Below are positions 6,023-42,061 of a DNA stretch of 46,829 nt, in pieces. Position numbers and translations under genes: made by a program. The notes under the pieces are model-generated. The model was not told where the DNA came from and searched no databases. It saw only the letters and a list, made by a program, of their open reading frames with translations. Source of the DNA: Bacteroidota bacterium. GTDB lineage: Bacteria; Bacteroidota; Bacteroidia; Chitinophagales; S012-47. The DNA lies in the NCBI GenBank assembly GCA_024276745.1, contig JAJRWN010000093.1:1-46829 (forward strand), read 5' to 3'. Positions within the stretch are counted from its first letter, which is position 1, and every line of letters starts with the position of its first letter.

Positions 6023-6076
6023 GGGTGCTTAGCGCTTTGGTGTAGAGCATCCCGATTACATCGGGAGGGTCGTAGG
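6023..6076 (+). pseudogene. Degenerate truncated tRNA-Val copy with the anticodon arm replaced by TCCCGAT-TAC-ATCGGGA
   Basis: Shares GGGTGCTTAGC, TAGAGCAT, TAC and GGGTCGTAGG with the intact tRNA 80 nt downstream; lacks the T-loop and 3' acceptor strand. Confidence 0.85.
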
Positions 6077-6102: not shown

Positions 6103-6180
6103 GGGTGCTTAGCTCAGTTGGTTTAGAGCATCTGCCTTACAAGCAGGGGGTCGTAGGTTCGAATCCTACAGTGCCCACCA
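6103..6180 (+). tRNA. tRNA-Val(TAC)
   Basis: Acceptor GGGTGCT/AGTGCCC, anticodon arm TCTGC-CT TAC AA-GCAGG, GTTCGAATC T-loop, encoded CCA. Confidence 0.97.
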
Positions 6181-9769: not shown

Positions 9770-10315
9770 TCAGGGATAAATAAAACGACCCGAAATCATA
9801 AATTCTTCCTCTTTACCTATGCTTGTTTTTTCTTTGGTTTTGATGCGGTAATATTGTTTAGGATAATATTTAAGCACGCTTATGCTACGGTAAACCAAAT
9901 TCTCTTTTACAATATTTATTTCAAGACTAATAATTTTATTTCTTCTACTGATAATTTTCATAGATTTTACCGGAATATTATCATTTGTTGTGGTAAACAA
10001 AACCTTAACTCTTCCGTGATTTACATACTGCGAATCTACCCGATAATAGTTCAAACGGGAAGTATTGCTGATATCAGCCTCAATAAAAGCTTGCAATTCT
10101 TTTTTCCAATCGGGCTTTTCGATGAGCACCGAATCGCTGACTTGACCAACCGAACCTGTTTTTAATAATGGTATCTGTTCATATTCCAAACTGTCAATTT
10201 GATTTTCAATAAACTTCGTAATCGAAAAATTAAGTGTTTCCGGTTTATCAGATGATACCTTATAGTGGCAAGCACTAACAGATACAAAAAACAGCATTAA
10301 AAAATAAAACCTCAT
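9770..10315 (-). CDS. Hypothetical lipoprotein
   Basis: Lipobox VSAC; starts 2 nt after the gpmI stop. Confidence 0.65.
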   Translation of the reverse strand: MRFYFLMLFFVSVSACHYKVSSDKPETLNFSITKFIENQIDSLEYEQIPLLKTGSVGQVSDSVLIEKPDWKKELQAFIEADISNTSRLNYYRVDSQYVNHGRVKVLFTTTNDNIPVKSMKIISRRNKIISLEINIVKENLVYRSISVLKYYPKQYYRIKTKEKTSIGKEEEFMISGRFIYP

Positions 10316-31907: not shown

Positions 31908-32082
31908 GATTTAATGAAATGATGCTAACAAGTAAAAATAGGCTAAGCATTCAGCACTATAAGCGCTTTCACCCACAAGCATGATGTTGAAACGTCTATT
32001 CTATTGGTTTATGGCGGTAAGGAGGAAAAAAGATATCAGGCTGTGCAGCTTGATAAGAGGAAAACACTATTGGTGTAAGAAA

Positions 32083-32117
32083 AAAAGCTTACAATACAAA
32101 TGGTATCGTAAGCTTTT
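32083..32117 (-). terminator. Intrinsic terminator after tRNA-Ala
   Basis: AAAAGCTTAC...GTAAGCTTTT inverted repeat with an A-run on the plus strand (U-tail on minus). Confidence 0.65.
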
Positions 32118-32131
32118 AATCCATAACAAGG

Positions 32132-32205
32132 TGGAGCTAGTGGGAGTCGAACCCACGACCTCTTGACTGCCAGTCAAGCACTCTAGCCAACTGAGCTATA
32201 GCCCC
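32132..32205 (-). tRNA. tRNA-Ala(GGC)
   Basis: Reverse complement GGGGCTATAGCTCAGTTGGCTAGAGTG CTTGA-CT GGC AG-TCAAG AGGTCGTGGGTTCGACTCCCACTAGCTCCA; G3:U70 Ala identity pair; followed by CCT, so CCA is not fully encoded. Confidence 0.97.
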
Positions 32206-32215
32206 ATACATTTCA

Positions 32216-32272
32216 GGGCTATGGCGAAGTGCCTGTCCCGGTGAAAACATATCATCGGGAAGCTATAGCCCC
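32216..32272 (-). repeat. tRNA-Ala 5'-end duplicate fused to a TCCCGATGA...TCACCGGGA palindrome (nested hairpin)
   Basis: GGGGCTATAGCT (12 nt identical to the tRNA-Ala 5' end), then a 9-bp inverted repeat with 1 mismatch, closed by GCCATAGCCC. Confidence 0.8.
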
Positions 32273-32284
32273 AAAAACAGGGAG

Positions 32285-32292
32285 CAAAGATA
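32285..32292 (-). promoter_or_regulatory. -7 element (TATCTTTG) for the tRNA-Ala unit
   Basis: Plus-strand CAAAGATA about 13 nt upstream of the duplicated 5' end. Confidence 0.7.
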
Positions 32293-32381
32293 AAATTTTT
32301 TAAAACTTTTCCGGTCTATCATGAGGTATTATTCATGCGCTTGCAAGCCGGCAAGGAAAAGATGCATGCAGGAAGAAGAGA

Positions 32382-33563
32382 TTAGCGGTTTTGACTTTCA
32401 GAATGCCAGGCTTTTTGTCCGTTCCTGATGGCTTGAATGGAGGCAGAATCGTTAAAAATTTGCCAGTTAAGGCTTTTATAGGTTGTAGTTTGGTCATCGG
32501 ATGAATGAAAAAACATAATACCTTTAATGTCAGGATATATATCGGGCAAACTATCGAGGGCAGCACTAAACCATTGACTACGTTCGCCCCCCACGGCAAG
32601 ACTGGCAAATTCAGATAATATGATTGGTTTACGAAACGATGCCAAATCCTCGTAGTATTTTCCAAATATGGAAGCAAAGCTCGACCATTGGGACCAGGAA
32701 GCCACGTTACCGTAGTTTAATACCGGAATACCAATCCAATCCACATAATCATCACCGGGATAATAAGTAGCAAATTGGCCATAGGCCGGATGAGGCGACC
32801 AAACCCAAATCACATTATCGGCACCAATCAATCGAAAGCGTTCTACAACATGACGCCAGGCATCAATATAGCTTTGCGGGTCATTATTTTGCGGTCCCCA
32901 GGGATAGCGGTAAGGGTCGTTCATTTCGTGTCCGAAGCGAACAAAAACCGGAATATCTATTTTTTTTGCTTTAGCCGCCCATTCGTCAATATAGCTATCG
33001 TACATACCCTTGGCAATGGAATCCAAACCATGAATATCGCGTTGATCAATGGAAGGGATACCGGGGATATCATCGTTTGAAAAATCGGATAACCAGGGTT
33101 CCCAGGTGATAAAAGGTATAGAGCCTAAATTATAAATAGCTCTTACCATTCTGCGTGGAAATTCTTCATTTGTTTTGCTTCCCCAGGCGCTGTAAAAATG
33201 CATTAAGGGGAAAGGAATTTCTATGGAATCTTCAAGATCCAATAATTTGCGAAAGCTTTCGTCCATAGTATTATCAAAAGCCCCCCAAAGCATGGTATCT
33301 GGATTGCGCAGCAAAGCAACATTATGTCGATAAGGCTGAAACCAATTTAGTTTATCGCTTCTCAATTTCTTCCTTACTTTTATGGCCATATTATTTTCGA
33401 TGGTATTAATTTGATCGCCAAGGCCACTGAATAAATCTTCAAGCGGGCCTTTAGATTGGTTTCCGGTAAAGGTTAACAAAAACACCAGCAAGACGCCAAG
33501 AGCAAGAGCACTTAATAGTATTGCAATTCTGACAGCTGAATATTTGATACGGGATCCAATCAT
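32382..33563 (-). CDS. Membrane-anchored glycoside hydrolase family 26
   Basis: N-terminal TM; ITWEPW, RFGHEMN (acid/base Glu), WVWSP, YYPGDDYVDWIG and IILSEFA (nucleophile Glu). Confidence 0.9.
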   Translation of the reverse strand: MIGSRIKYSAVRIAILLSALALGVLLVFLLTFTGNQSKGPLEDLFSGLGDQINTIENNMAIKVRKKLRSDKLNWFQPYRHNVALLRNPDTMLWGAFDNTMDESFRKLLDLEDSIEIPFPLMHFYSAWGSKTNEEFPRRMVRAIYNLGSIPFITWEPWLSDFSNDDIPGIPSIDQRDIHGLDSIAKGMYDSYIDEWAAKAKKIDIPVFVRFGHEMNDPYRYPWGPQNNDPQSYIDAWRHVVERFRLIGADNVIWVWSPHPAYGQFATYYPGDDYVDWIGIPVLNYGNVASWSQWSSFASIFGKYYEDLASFRKPIILSEFASLAVGGERSQWFSAALDSLPDIYPDIKGIMFFHSSDDQTTTYKSLNWQIFNDSASIQAIRNGQKAWHSESQNR

Positions 33564-33585
33564 ATTCCTATTTTTTCCGGATATA

Positions 33586-33593
33586 CAAAGGTA
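33586..33593 (-). promoter_or_regulatory. Possible internal -7 element (TACCTTTG) ahead of the GH26 gene
   Basis: Exact TAnnTTTG in the 37-nt GT2-GH26 gap. Confidence 0.45.
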
Positions 33594-33600
33594 TATATAA

Positions 33601-35184
33601 TCATAAATCGTTTACATTTATTTTTTGCCAGGGTTCAGCGGCATCCAGGCGGCTCGATTCGAAAGCAGCAAACAAAGCCCCCACAGCCATCACAAAAGCA
33701 ATGCTAGCAAAACCAATCATCCCCCAGGTTTGTTCGCTAGTCAGTGATAAAACCGATTCGGGGGTATAAAACAAGCGATAAATAACCACGAAACAAACCG
33801 TAATTAAAAAAATCAGTATATGCAGCATCATCGGCCGGGCAAAAGGACTTAGACCGCGGGCTGCTTTTTTTGCCGTAGGTATATAAGGAATTTTTTTATT
33901 AATCAAGGATAATAAGAATCCAAGCAAATAAACCGGCCAATTGGCAAATTTCAATATCATACCGCGCCAGTGCAATCCTTTTTCAGTAGCGGGGTCGCAC
34001 ATCCATCGCTGAACAAAAAGGTAAATAGCAGTACCAAAACCGGCCAGTGGTAACCAACGGATCAGAAAATTGACCAAATACATATTGGCAGGCAAAACAT
34101 TAAACCAGAAAAATAAAAATGGAATAATAAGAAAAGTAAATAAACTCAGTCCGTTTATATAATAGGTTCCGATAGCGATATAAGATAATTTTTGCCAAAA
34201 ACTAAGGGTAGAAAATAAAGCAGGAACTTCGGCAAACAAAACCTCATGAACCCCTCTGGACCATTTCAGTTGCTGTTTGCAGAAAGACCCAAAATCTTCG
34301 GGCACCAAACCACGGCTTACGATAACCGGATTATACACCGTTTTCCATTTTTTTCCGTGAATACGGATAGCTGTTACCAGATCTTCGGCCAAACCAATAC
34401 CGTGGCCTCCAATGCTTTCAAGGGCTTTTCGCCTGAAAGTACAATTGGCACCAATAGCAACAGCAGCATTAAAACCATGCATACCCATTTGAGTAGGTCC
34501 GTAAAAAGTATAGGTTTGCTCAGCGGCAGCACGTGCCGTAAACGAACGGTACTGATTATAATAAGCTTGTGAGACCTGCACATAGCCCACGTTTTCATCT
34601 TTAAAATAGCCCAATGTATGATGGAGAAATTCAGGAAAAGGAATATGATCAGGATCCAGGATAAGAATAAAATCTTCTGATGTTATTTTTAAAGCTGCAT
34701 TTACTTTACCGGCTTTGGCACCCGGCAAACCGACCAATTCGAGCCAAACGGCTCCGTGTTTTTCGGCTACTTTTCTAAAGCGTTCATCTTCGGTATCATC
34801 GAGCAAATAAGTAGTATGCGGATATTGTATATTAGCACAGGCTTCGAGGGTCTTTTCAAACATCGACAGTGGCTCACCGGGCGAACTGGTTGTAAATATG
34901 GCAACACTCATACCTTCGGGAGCCGGTATGGCTTTGGGTTTGCTGATACGCAAATAGCCGATCCAACTAATCAGCATGCGTAAGATTCCCCACCAAAAGA
35001 TTAGCGTTAATAAAATATACAATATCAAATTGTTTACATGCTCTTCTCTGAACCACCAATCGGCCAGGTTTATCATACTGAGAAAACCGGCAATCATCAA
35101 GGTAAGCAGTATAAATTTATCGCGAAAACGGGGTGCTTTAGCTTCCTTAAATGTCCATAAACCGCCTGCTCTTCGTTTGTTCAT
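33601..35184 (-). CDS. Processive GT2 glycosyltransferase, cellulose-synthase (BcsA)-like, no PilZ
   Basis: LLDD, GAKAGKVN, DPDHIP, VQVSQ, LAED, QQLKW and gating-loop-like YIPTAK motifs; two N-terminal and several C-terminal TMs. Confidence 0.9.
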   Translation of the reverse strand: MNKRRAGGLWTFKEAKAPRFRDKFILLTLMIAGFLSMINLADWWFREEHVNNLILYILLTLIFWWGILRMLISWIGYLRISKPKAIPAPEGMSVAIFTTSSPGEPLSMFEKTLEACANIQYPHTTYLLDDTEDERFRKVAEKHGAVWLELVGLPGAKAGKVNAALKITSEDFILILDPDHIPFPEFLHHTLGYFKDENVGYVQVSQAYYNQYRSFTARAAAEQTYTFYGPTQMGMHGFNAAVAIGANCTFRRKALESIGGHGIGLAEDLVTAIRIHGKKWKTVYNPVIVSRGLVPEDFGSFCKQQLKWSRGVHEVLFAEVPALFSTLSFWQKLSYIAIGTYYINGLSLFTFLIIPFLFFWFNVLPANMYLVNFLIRWLPLAGFGTAIYLFVQRWMCDPATEKGLHWRGMILKFANWPVYLLGFLLSLINKKIPYIPTAKKAARGLSPFARPMMLHILIFLITVCFVVIYRLFYTPESVLSLTSEQTWGMIGFASIAFVMAVGALFAAFESSRLDAAEPWQKINVNDL

Positions 35185-36698
35185 TTGATCAACCGGTATT
35201 TTAATTGTATTCCGGCCCGGTTTCCAGTATAATAATGATTTAATTCGTAGCGATACCAGGCATGCAACTGCACAACATCATTAATATAATACGAAACATT
35301 TGCCCTGATATCGTAAGTTTTAAAACGATTTAGTGCCCAATTGGTTTGCAGCAACCATGTTCCGTTCTGGCTTGCTGAAAAGTATAACGCAGGATATTGG
35401 GATAAGGCAAACAATCCGGCATTTACTTTTACAGCAAATTCCCATTGCTCAACAGGTTTATAAGCTATATTCAGCAATAAGGAATGAATCTGCTGCCTGA
35501 AAGGAGTAAAATACGGATAATAATATCCGGCAGGATAGGCATTGGCAGCCGTATCTTTCAATAATTCGGACACCGGTAATACGGATACAAAGCGACCGGC
35601 TGCAGCATGACTATAGTTGGCTCCATAACCGGCCCGTATTTTCCATCTTGACGATTGAATCAATGGCCATAAACCCCAGGCATAATAGGATTGAACCTGA
35701 TTTTGATCTTCAAAGAAATCGCCTTGATAGCCCAACGAAAACCAAAAATGCCCGGGACGATACCACTTTAGCGAGCCATGCAAATAATAGCGCATAGTCA
35801 AGGTATCCAAAGCACTGAGATTATCCATATAAACCGAGCGTCCAAATGATGCCGATAAAACTAATTGTTTAAATAAGTTTCTATCGGCCGATAAACCATA
35901 AATTATTTTTGAACCCGAACCATTTTTATTTTGAAAATGATAAATACCTAACCAAGGTATTGTTCCAAGCCTGATTTTATTCCACCGGATAACATTCGAA
36001 ACCACTGCAGAGTAATGTCCAAAACAGGTAGTACCGGAGCCGGGTTGATCGAATTGCAAGCTTAAGTGAGGAGCCAGTAATGAAGATTTTCTTATTCCTC
36101 CTTCCATCTGCACGGTTTTTATACTATATGGTTGATTGTCGGCCTGCCATGAACCCGATAAGGAGAAATTTGCAGCAGAAGCCAAGTTTATTTCATGGAG
36201 CAGTTTTATTGCATTTTCATCGTCAGGATATGACAAAAGAAGTTTTTGCAAAATAATATTGGCTTTAACCATATTGCCCATCCAGTAGTTATTTTTTGCT
36301 TTGAGATAGAGCAATTCGATTTCAAGCGAATCGTTAATCAATAAACTGTCAATCAGCATTTCCGCTTCGTTGAGCTTTCCTGTATTTTGTAAAAAACGGG
36401 TATAATCTATGCTTAATTCACGCAGGTCAGGTTTAAGATGAATGGCTTTTTTAAAACTATTACGGGCAAATGCTGTTTTATTCAAAGCATAATTAACCTG
36501 TGCATACTTCCACCAGGCATAAACATCATCAGGATGAGCATCTAGATATCCGATGAGTAAAGTATTAGCCTCTTTAAGATGATTTTGTTGCCTCAGGCCA
36601 TTAACTTGCACCAGGGTATCGGGCGATTCATTGGTTTGTGCAAACAAAAATATATGAGCGGTAAGAAGAGTGGAAAACAGCAGGAGATATCTCAACAT
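35181..36698 (-). CDS. TPR plus outer-membrane beta-barrel protein (BcsC/PgaA-like export porin candidate)
   Basis: Signal peptide, about four TPR-like helical repeats, then aromatic amphipathic strands with YYYPYFTP; ends AGIQLKYRLIK; 4-nt overlap with the GT2 gene. Confidence 0.75.
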   Translation of the reverse strand: MLRYLLLFSTLLTAHIFLFAQTNESPDTLVQVNGLRQQNHLKEANTLLIGYLDAHPDDVYAWWKYAQVNYALNKTAFARNSFKKAIHLKPDLRELSIDYTRFLQNTGKLNEAEMLIDSLLINDSLEIELLYLKAKNNYWMGNMVKANIILQKLLLSYPDDENAIKLLHEINLASAANFSLSGSWQADNQPYSIKTVQMEGGIRKSSLLAPHLSLQFDQPGSGTTCFGHYSAVVSNVIRWNKIRLGTIPWLGIYHFQNKNGSGSKIIYGLSADRNLFKQLVLSASFGRSVYMDNLSALDTLTMRYYLHGSLKWYRPGHFWFSLGYQGDFFEDQNQVQSYYAWGLWPLIQSSRWKIRAGYGANYSHAAAGRFVSVLPVSELLKDTAANAYPAGYYYPYFTPFRQQIHSLLLNIAYKPVEQWEFAVKVNAGLFALSQYPALYFSASQNGTWLLQTNWALNRFKTYDIRANVSYYINDVVQLHAWYRYELNHYYTGNRAGIQLKYRLIK

Positions 36699-41149: not shown

Positions 41150-42061
41150 TCAATTTTTTTTCTTCCGGTACATCGGATGAAATTGAATCAAGGTATCGCG
41201 CAAATATTGCCGGTCGAGATGGGTATAAATTTCTGTTGTAGTAATGGATTCGTGTCCCAGCATTTCCTGAACCGCTCTCAGGTCGGCACCCCCTTCCACC
41301 AAATGGGTGGCAAAACTATGCCGGAAAGTATGGGGGCTAATATTTTTGCTAATACCGGCTTTTTTTGCCAGTGCTTTAACGCATGTAAAAACAGTAATCC
41401 GGCTTAAAGGACGACCAAATTTATTCAAAAAAATCAAATCTTCTGCTTTGGGGTCGATCTTGAGCTGCCGTCTGGCACCATCAATATAAATCCTGATATA
41501 TTTCATGGCCTGATTGCCCATAGGAACCAGTCGTTCCTTACTACCTTTACCCATTACCCTCAGAAATCCTATATCGGGATAATAATCTGAAATCTTTAGA
41601 TGGCAGAGTTCGGATACACGCAATCCGCAACCATACAAGGTTTCGAGTATAGCCCGGCTCCGCTGTCCTTCCGGTGTCGAGTGATTGATAACAGAAAAAA
41701 TACTTTCTATCTCTGCAAGACTTAATACCTGTGGTAATTTCCGGCCCAGTTTAGGCCCTTCTATTATTTCAGTAGGGTTGGCATCAATCAGGTCTTCCAT
41801 CAGTAGGTATTTATAAAATGCTTTCAATCCCGAAAGCGCCCTGGCTCTACTGCGAGCTGACAAGCCTTCATCTTCAAGCCACGCCAGAAAATTGTCCAAC
41901 TCATTGGTGCTAATCTGCTCTGCTCCCTCTACATGATGATCTATTGCCCAGGTTTTAAATTTCTGGATATCACACATGTAAGCTTCAACTGAATTTGCAG
42001 CCAATGATTTTTCGAGCCTTAAATAAGTATTAAATCCATTAATAAGTGAGGTCCATTCCAT
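41150..42061 (-). CDS. xerD: Site-specific tyrosine recombinase XerD
   Basis: LYGCGLRVSEL, GKGSKER, SPHTFRHSFATH and LGHESITTTEIYTH; housekeeping XerD-type N-terminus. Confidence 0.93.
   Translation of the reverse strand: MEWTSLINGFNTYLRLEKSLAANSVEAYMCDIQKFKTWAIDHHVEGAEQISTNELDNFLAWLEDEGLSARSRARALSGLKAFYKYLLMEDLIDANPTEIIEGPKLGRKLPQVLSLAEIESIFSVINHSTPEGQRSRAILETLYGCGLRVSELCHLKISDYYPDIGFLRVMGKGSKERLVPMGNQAMKYIRIYIDGARRQLKIDPKAEDLIFLNKFGRPLSRITVFTCVKALAKKAGISKNISPHTFRHSFATHLVEGGADLRAVQEMLGHESITTTEIYTHLDRQYLRDTLIQFHPMYRKKKN

Follow-up and report, generated by a model that had tools for sequence, protein, structure and literature searches.

Directly ahead of the tRNA-Ala(GGC) gene in a genome of the Bacteroidota (G000; 164 contigs, 2.31 Mb, 37 tRNAs, 90% complete) lies what is now confirmed to be a real partial copy of that same gene, interrupted by a hairpin. 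This copy (hereafter, the Ala twin) is located in the window, by which is meant the whole stretch of 46,829 nucleotides that was analysed, and a second such copy, the Val twin, precedes the gene for tRNA-Val(TAC) in the same stretch (Table 1). The arms of the twins follow the sequence of the tRNA downstream of them, and hairpins of this kind are associated with genes for small GIY-YIG nucleases at tRNA loci. The chances appear to be about even that the Ala and Val twins are relatives, devoid of the nuclease gene, of a tRNA-colonizing element of the Bacteroidota that is composed of a GIY-YIG gene and hairpins.

Table 1. Coordinates of the features at the Val and Ala loci of the window and of two nuclease frames on other contigs of G000 ("read" denotes a feature read from the sequence)
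Feature	Position	Strand	Description or basis
Val twin	6023-6076	+	tRNA-Val(TAC) bases 1-11, altered D loop, bases 20-26, hairpin, bases 44-53
11-mer copy of tRNA-Val 5' end in Val twin	6023-6033	+	Exact match
Hairpin of Val twin, TCCCGATTACATCGGGA	6050-6066	+	Perfect palindrome replacing anticodon arm; 37 nt before tRNA-Val(TAC)
Intact tRNA-Val(TAC)	6103-6180	+	ARAGORN; Rfam
Hairpin and T run after tRNA-Ala, terminator-like	32079-32116	-	Read
Intact tRNA-Ala(GGC)	32130-32205	-	ARAGORN; Rfam tRNA, 69.5 bits
A/T-rich spacer between twin and tRNA	32206-32214	-	~10 nt; read
Ala twin, whole	32206-32272 including spacer	-	Read
3' arm of Ala twin, GCCATAGCCC(T)	32215-32225 (GCCATAGCCC, 32216-32225)	-	Copy of tRNA 3' acceptor strand, one base missing
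Conserved linker, CAGGCACTTC	32226-32235	-	Family consensus CARGCACTTC; invariant or near-invariant in 9/9 aligned twins
P2 hairpin, TCCCGATGA-tatgttt-TCACCGGGA	32236-32260	-	9 bp, one A.C mismatch; sequence, folding, alignment of twins, pair counts
5' arm of Ala twin, GGGGCTATAGCT	32261-32272	-	Identical to tRNA-Ala(GGC) bases 1-12; exact 11-mer match at -67
TAtcTTTG box, promoter-like (-7 type)	32285-32292	-	12 nt upstream of Ala twin; read
Three extra genes (GH26-like, GT2 cellulose-synthase-like, TPR)	32382-36698	-	Between lpxB and Ala twin
Small GIY-YIG frame at tRNA-Asp	C103 4074-4426, outside window		73.2 bits to PF01541, 78-aa match, 109-aa open frame
Small GIY-YIG frame at tRNA-Leu	C79 10690-10896, outside window		Starts 2 nt after tRNA-Leu

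All of the elements that an earlier, sequence-only reading had listed for the Ala twin are present on the minus strand, base for base. The twin represents a truncated copy of tRNA-Ala, in which bases 1-12 are followed by a GC-rich palindrome, a short linker that is conserved, and a copy of the acceptor strand from the 3' side; it would sit in the leader of the tRNA, to be transcribed along with it. Its first base occupies the position at which a tRNA usually starts relative to the promoter-like box, which we take to be a -7 element of Bacteroidota promoters; a TAnnTTTG box was also observed 10-25 nt before tRNA-Ala and tRNA-Val in relatives. The 3' arm pairs with the 5' arm (helix 1, with 87.9% of cells paired among the aligned twins), the TCCCG/CGGGA base of the hairpin is common to all twins, and the free energy of the predicted fold is -57.9 kcal/mol (z -3.0). 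Positions 32177-32700 were reproduced with 0 differences by a Logan contig of run X1, which covers the tRNA side for 29 nt only, and hence the Ala twin is no artefact of this assembly alone; X1 may be the source sample of the assembly. Contigs of two further runs, guessed to be RNA, covered only the tRNA. A search of Rfam 15 (E≤10) returned no curated RNA family for 32206-32272, and its tRNA model, RF00005 (cloverleaf cut-off 29 bits), reported neither the Ala nor the Val twin at E≤10. As a separate observation, the 9-mer TCCCGATGA with up to one mismatch occurs at 27 sites in the window compared to 9 expected (0/100 shuffles reach 27), and these sites lie mostly inside coding sequence.

The Val locus has the same layout as its Ala counterpart, as had been claimed, with an 11-mer copy, a hairpin and an intact tRNA. 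By simple arithmetic, an exact 11-12-mer within 200 nt is expected approximately 1e-5 times per tRNA; exact copies of a tRNA's own first 11 bases within 200 nt upstream were found for two of the 37 tRNAs of G000, those for Ala and Val only. As a correction to the earlier reading, further tRNAs have twins as well, since a wider look at G000 revealed hairpin twins at tRNA-Asp (C103) and tRNA-Pro(TGG) (C49) too. With regard to placement of the palindrome, five of the 23 TCCCG.{3,30}CGGGA sites in G000 are found less than 300 nt from a tRNA, where approximately 0.26 would be expected, consistent with the suggested tie to tRNA loci. All five reside in twins (one each of Val, Ala and Asp, and two of Pro(TGG)), and thus four of the 37 tRNA loci of this genome carry hairpin twins. 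At C49 (approximately 10040-10300, minus strand, outside the window), two tandem units of 142 nt follow tRNA-Pro(TGG), each composed of a terminator and the 3' part of this tRNA, in which TCCCGATAGCTCGGGA substitutes for the anticodon arm and the T loop holds a second hairpin. Given these duplicates of a 3' end with the same hairpin, a bias to the 5' end is no rule. With the two leaders as queries, blastn-short gave no further copy of the Ala or Val twin in G000, the best other match being 18 nt (E 0.44), and the anticodon stem of the Val-twin hairpin type was found in no genuine tRNA of G000. The distribution also differs from that of a MITE; there are no near-identical copies in G000, the carriers hold one tRNA-linked copy or a local array, and the direct repeats are of variable length (12 to 55 nt), unlike fixed target duplications.

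The window holds the housekeeping genes dnaE, iPGM, nadC, lpxB and surE. The block of three extra genes on the lpxB side of the Ala twin (Table 1) was found in G000 only; in both a genome of the same genus (G001) and one of a sister genus (G002), lpxB is directly upstream of tRNA-Ala. The Ala twin may have arrived together with this 4.5-kb block, on the lpxB side of which no tRNA fragment was found. Gene order is kept in G001 while both the Ala and Val twins are absent, and relative to this genome the Val leader of G000 carries a clean insertion of approximately 62 nt. G002 has a different twin before tRNA-Val, in which a 20-nt copy of the 5' end of this tRNA precedes two hairpins and then the acceptor strand of the 3' side.

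A nuclease family that co-occurs with the twins, as had been envisaged, was indeed identified in the form of small, single-domain GIY-YIG genes that are flanked by hairpins and wedged into tRNA loci. At many loci, the hairpins flank a gene encoding 80-110 aa that is situated between the twin and the tRNA. G000 has four matches to PF01541, one within a frame of 471 aa, another within a frame of 600 aa that is taken to be UvrC, and two in small frames that touch tRNAs (Table 1). The order at C103 is a twin (tRNA-Asp bases 1-21, TCCCGAGTGCTCGGGA, bases 27-41), the GIY-YIG frame, 12 nt, and the intact tRNA-Asp; with no stop codon ahead of the tRNA, the frame runs on as far as the D loop of tRNA-Asp. 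With the C103 protein as query, matches were obtained in 23 of 31 related genomes. Of the 30 homologous ORF loci that were fetched, 16 lie no more than 400 nt from a tRNA encoded on the same strand. Nine have a strict hairpin within 450 nt (~0.3 expected); such hairpins usually precede the start codon by 30-40 nt and closely follow the stop codon. Hairpins are found on both sides of the ORF in L192, L206 and L215, and on one side only in, for example, L188 (G000), L190 and L202; L199 has strict hairpins only after the ORF, together with an upstream twin that bears a looser TCCCGCC stretch.

The arrangement of hairpin, ORF and hairpin was found inside tRNA copies in four genomes (G004, G779, G002, and G023). 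A GIY-YIG ORF of 97 aa lies between tRNA copies in G004. With G779 (L182, C1:165000-172500), a 366-nt unit is repeated eight times in tandem, each unit comprising a terminator, a 3' part that resembles a tRNA, and a GIY-YIG frame of approximately 88 aa, the end of which falls within the loop of the hairpin; the array follows a truncated 3' part of tRNA-Val and adjoins an integrase gene. The tRNA-Pro(GGG) locus of G002 is ordered as twin, nuclease gene, twin, spacer and tRNA, and it shares the TAGCT-TCCCG junction and the acceptor-strand end CCATCCCG with twins that have no ORF. Within the family, the small GIY-YIG protein is absent from one of seven genomes, G001, which is also without both twins. 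A tblastn search with 21 queries found no GIY-YIG ORF in 17 loci that are of the Ala/Pro type or orphans, and none in the window, and a covariance model of the Ala/Pro type matched the ORF-flanking twins at the hairpin only (12-14 bits), with no whole-twin match. The GIY-YIG protein gave a weak match to a group-I-intron endonuclease in NCBIfam, and its best relatives in the PDB are UPF0213 proteins (E 8e-9).

The closest precedent is found in Neisseria meningitidis, where SsnA, a single-domain GIY-YIG protein of 94 aa, is reported to cut only ssDNA, adjacent to the hairpin repeat CGTCATTCCCGCGMAVGCGGGAATCYRG (NTS; core TCCCGCG..CGCGGGA); its gene is flanked by such repeats (Chenal, 2025; PMC11893778). 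The authors liken this layout to that of an insertion sequence and to REP/RAYT, and leave the role of Ssn outside Neisseria open (PMC11893778). Compared to the main text of that report, the loci described here share a single-domain GIY-YIG protein of approximately 90-100 aa (encoded at the neighbouring loci, not the Ala locus), hairpin repeats on both sides of the gene, and a hairpin core, TCCC..N8-9..GGGA or TCCCGC..GCGGGA, that resembles NTS. They differ in that the hairpins lie inside partial tRNA copies and number a handful per genome, not hundreds, and in their non-palindromic flanks. The published degenerate SRM motif matched none of the three G000 twins that were scanned as regions (those of Ala, Val and Asp), and it had one match in the whole of this genome (C128). 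The main text of PMC11893778, supplements aside, contains both "tRNA" and "Bacteroid" 0 times, and our search of the literature found no earlier account, either of twins linked to tRNAs or of GIY-YIG genes residing at tRNA loci in the Bacteroidota, although the supplements of that paper may list such loci. The sequence-only reading had proposed a general, undescribed hairpin system linked to tRNAs; the system is general and not a product of chance, but "undescribed" is too strong a word given that GIY-YIG genes with flanking hairpin repeats are known as Ssn/SRM (PMC11893778, main text).

Other known systems share separate features with these loci. SegB of phage T4, a free-standing GIY-YIG homing endonuclease encoded within the T4 tRNA gene cluster, drives the inheritance of tRNA regions and, according to an abstract of 2026, segmental amplification too (PMC2330249; PMC13096335). 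It is likewise the product of a GIY-YIG gene among tRNA genes, but it belongs to a phage and not a chromosome, and the abstracts mention neither hairpin repeats nor tRNA copies broken by hairpins. Matches to the Y1 (HUH) transposase family, PF01797, numbered 0 in G000 (90% complete). The REP/RAYT and IS200/IS605 systems (discussed in part in PMC11893778) likewise combine short palindromes with a small nuclease of their own, one that recognises hairpins in ssDNA; the nuclease here is of the GIY-YIG type, however, and the copies are tied to tRNA genes.

The proposed element would consist of a gene that encodes a GIY-YIG protein with a single domain (80-110 aa) and that has TCCCG...CGGGA hairpins on either side, and it would lodge within or beside tRNA genes. 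By partial tandem duplication, one intact copy of the tRNA would remain while the other, the twin, bears the hairpin or hairpins; the locus would survive because an intact copy is left. By analogy to the Ssn nucleases, the encoded enzyme may recognise the hairpin as ssDNA, and the cloverleaf-prone strand of tRNA genes would then serve as its entry point. Twins with no ORF may have lost a gene that lay between two repeats, or they may stem from recombination with DNA that already bore a twin, the conserved tRNA serving as the anchor, and the nuclease encoded at C103 could act on them in trans. In its broadest form, which we propose only tentatively and at somewhat less than an even chance, this would be a new class of selfish element whereby Ssn-like GIY-YIG genes with hairpin ends colonize tRNA genes, probably via the cloverleaf strand, and leave twins behind, with some of the Ala/Pro twins perhaps kept as tRNA-like leader RNAs that influence expression of the tRNA.

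The first description of Ssn nucleases dates from 2025 (PMC11893778). If true, the tie between GIY-YIG genes, hairpins and tRNAs would provide this family of small nucleases with a target in nature and with a life cycle that is open to testing. The same tie would account for the puzzling "tRNA-like" genes, their anticodon arms broken, that are called by gene finders in the Bacteroidota, and point to a source of rearrangement and tandem amplification at tRNA loci. Should the twins be made as RNA, they would constitute a new kind of tRNA-mimicking leader.

The core of the Ala twin, with arms that match the downstream tRNA, was found in at least 10 other genomes or contigs, preceding tRNA-Ala(GGC) (L049, an Ekhidna MAG, and G073, G106 and G254), tRNA-Pro(GGG) (metagenome contig L054, and G163, G144 and G180) or tRNA-Met(CAT) (G302). 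In every Ala, Pro and Met case, the arms are those of the acceptor stem of the tRNA downstream. When each species was represented by one genome, a scan for two tRNA-Ala 5'-end copies 35-65 nt apart provided 11 loci. The core found in the window recurs in L049 (12-mer, TCCCG..CGGGA, CAGGCACTTCGC, AGCCCT), L045 (a Melioribacteraceae MAG) has a variant core, two loci have another type of hairpin, and the remaining seven consist of simple fragments or tandem duplicates of the tRNA-Ala 5' end, unrelated and sporadic in other phyla. L046 and L050 (Saprospiraceae and Bacteroidia MAGs) were observed to have a different type of twin before tRNA-Ala(GGC), in which a 15-16-nt copy of its own 5' end is followed by a TGCTGAC..GTCAGCA hairpin and then CTGAG. 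A metagenome scan for the core gave three matches, of which one, L054, is true, its arms CGGGATGTAGCT and CATCCCG-A corresponding to the acceptor stem of the downstream tRNA-Pro(GGG); the other two were rejected, having no tRNA near and resembling coding sequence.

Among 151 relatives of the Ekhidna genome, six carriers were identified, three at tRNA-Ala(GGC) (G041, G073, and G106) and three at tRNA-Pro(GGG) (G163, G144, and G180), in a scan for which the reversed control pattern matched five times; a second count of Ala/Pro-type carriers gave three of 151. A covariance model, the use of which had been suggested earlier, was built from nine twins and led to further tRNA-linked members. These comprise a copy in G254 before tRNA-Ala(GGC), where the repeat includes the promoter, a degenerate copy in G302 before tRNA-Met(CAT), and a second copy in G073, which lies downstream of tRNA-Gln in antisense orientation and is accompanied by a repeat (20-22 nt) of the tRNA 3' end; the model also found one orphan each in G129 and G012. 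A sample of 401 genomes from the phylum added G335 (Ala) and G674, with only matches that have both the hairpin and a tRNA being counted because the control pattern was commoner than the pattern itself. Among viral contigs, the Ala/Pro-type pattern had 0 matches and the Val palindrome five, none of them near a tRNA.

The Val type of hairpin is likewise a feature of tRNA copies. A search of 301 genomes from the order retrieved the junction GAGCA-TCCCG..CGGGA-GGGTC in 30 of them, compared to 0 matches for the control, and 19 of the 20 loci that were fetched are tRNA-like copies beside their cognate tRNA-Val, Ala(TGC), Lys or Gly. In these copies, a GC stem of 6-7 bp with a short and often palindromic loop replaces the anticodon arm. 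Some are full-length with a terminator of their own, scoring as high as 60.9 bits (L164) or 38 bits (L156) with the Rfam tRNA model, and ARAGORN labels such genes with broken anticodon arms as tRNA-??? or Ile(tat). Stems of the form TCCCGCC..GGCGGGA followed by a T run, much like the twin hairpins, were also observed as terminators at L215 (G002) and at tRNA loci of other relatives, and hence part of the likeness among hairpins may be generic.

Descent of the Ala and Val twins from a GIY-YIG element is favoured by the existence of a family whose arms invariably copy the acceptor stem downstream, by the wide occurrence of the hairpin base as a mark of tRNA copies, by the link to GIY-YIG genes and the junction shared with the G002 Pro locus, by the lack of both twins in G001, and by the Ssn precedent. 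It is opposed by the lack of a GIY-YIG ORF at Ala/Pro-type loci, the restriction of model matches to the hairpin, the unmatched SRM motif, the lack of a second copy, and synteny. With no nuclease at the Ala/Pro loci, a model match confined to the hairpin, synteny, and a conserved linker that the scheme accommodates only as an asymmetric flank required by nucleases of this kind, a functional leader RNA stays a serious rival, albeit one that we consider rather doubtful. The Ala/Pro-type twin would then be a structured RNA, a tRNA-like minihelix with no D arm, that is co-transcribed with the tRNA and freed by RNase P and RNase Z, and that acts either in cis on processing or expression of the precursor or as a small tRNA mimic; its link to the nuclease would be historical only. 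Consistent with this, the nine aligned twins have 26 invariant columns, with the core kept across at least two classes, and all nine fold as predicted (z -2.4 to -5.2). Pairing amounts to 88.9% of cells compared to 74.9% in shuffles (0/500 reach the observed value) and 28-46% with the partners slid, and the arms in G180 have drifted from the tRNA yet still pair, pair 2-71 having changed from G-C to C-G. The twins start where a tRNA normally would relative to the promoter box, and flanking genes are conserved within clades (NlpC/P60 before Ala twins and a BCD-family gene after Pro twins), which fits stable inheritance as well as mobility. However, pairing of the arms is automatic once both acceptor strands are copied, and the arms of a palindrome can stay matched by template switching at the level of DNA. 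The rarity of the twins (6/151 or 3/151 genomes), their absence from the same-genus G001, the tandem arrays (four copies in G106 and at least three in G144), the antisense copy downstream of tRNA-Gln, and the lack of an Rfam family match also argue against a functional RNA. The two readings are, moreover, mutually compatible. Among more specific RNA candidates, hammerhead or C/D-box motifs were dropped because neither L049 nor L054 conserves them, a leader of the T-box type was likewise dropped on sequence, and a minihelix charged by AlaRS was rejected, as all Ala twins have G3-C70 or no 3-70 pair.

Two further explanations fit the data poorly. Integrative elements that target tRNA genes have att repeats of tRNA 3' ends, and they have in common with the present loci a partial tRNA copy beside an intact tRNA. 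It is nonetheless unlikely that the twins are scars or secondary attachment sites of such tyrosine-integrase elements, with the palindrome serving as the recombinase core site. Integrase N-terminal domains (Arm-DNA-bind_5 and Phage_int_SAM_5) were detected beside three of 19 tRNA-like Val-type loci (L156, L161, and L165; 25/36 ORFs scanned), and the downstream twins with 3' parts do resemble att repeats, but no integrase was found in 15 Ala/Pro-type loci (37/62 ORFs of at least 130 aa scanned). At the Ala locus it is the 5' end that is copied, the copies are 55 nt apart, and an integrase is absent; the only gene of the window with a Phage_integrase domain (41150-42061) is 9 kb away. Furthermore, the twins are separated from their tRNAs by 10-120 nt with no element between, both strands of the stem are changed, unlike a hybrid att site, and no far att repeat was found in G629. 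Neutral decay of a partial tandem tRNA duplication, with neither a dedicated element nor a function, is very unlikely. Such copies would originate from slippage or unequal crossing-over, their hairpins being perfected by quasi-palindrome template switching, as a counterpart to the plastid trnF pseudogene arrays, in which tandem partial tRNA copies accompany the functional gene and whose abstract mentions neither a shared foreign hairpin nor a nuclease gene (PMC3786074). The direct repeats around the twins, which vary from 12 to 55 nt, the tandem arrays, the palindromic nature of many hairpin loops, and the sporadic, unrelated tRNA-Ala 5' fragments of other phyla (7/11 loci) are in accord with decay. 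It is disfavoured because the same core, a TCCCG/CGGGA stem with the linker CARGCACTTCGC, is shared at different tRNAs and in different classes, and it leaves the excess of GIY-YIG genes at twin loci unexplained.

A number of matches encountered during the searches were set aside. The search for a donor copy in G335 gave only a further tandem copy beside an N gap, a match in G624 lies inside a regularly spaced repeat array, presumably a CRISPR array as judged by eye, and a repeat in G135 with CAGGCACTTCGCC proved to be a different element. G135 also has a separate family of repeats, CTTCGCTTCGCTCAGGCACTTCGCC in a hairpin with 12-bp arms, away from tRNAs (L084, L089, L100, and L115); by eye, CTTCGCTTCGCTCAGGCACTTCGCC repeats are present at five loci of this genome, with paired motifs at C15, C23, C27 and C67 and one motif at C53.
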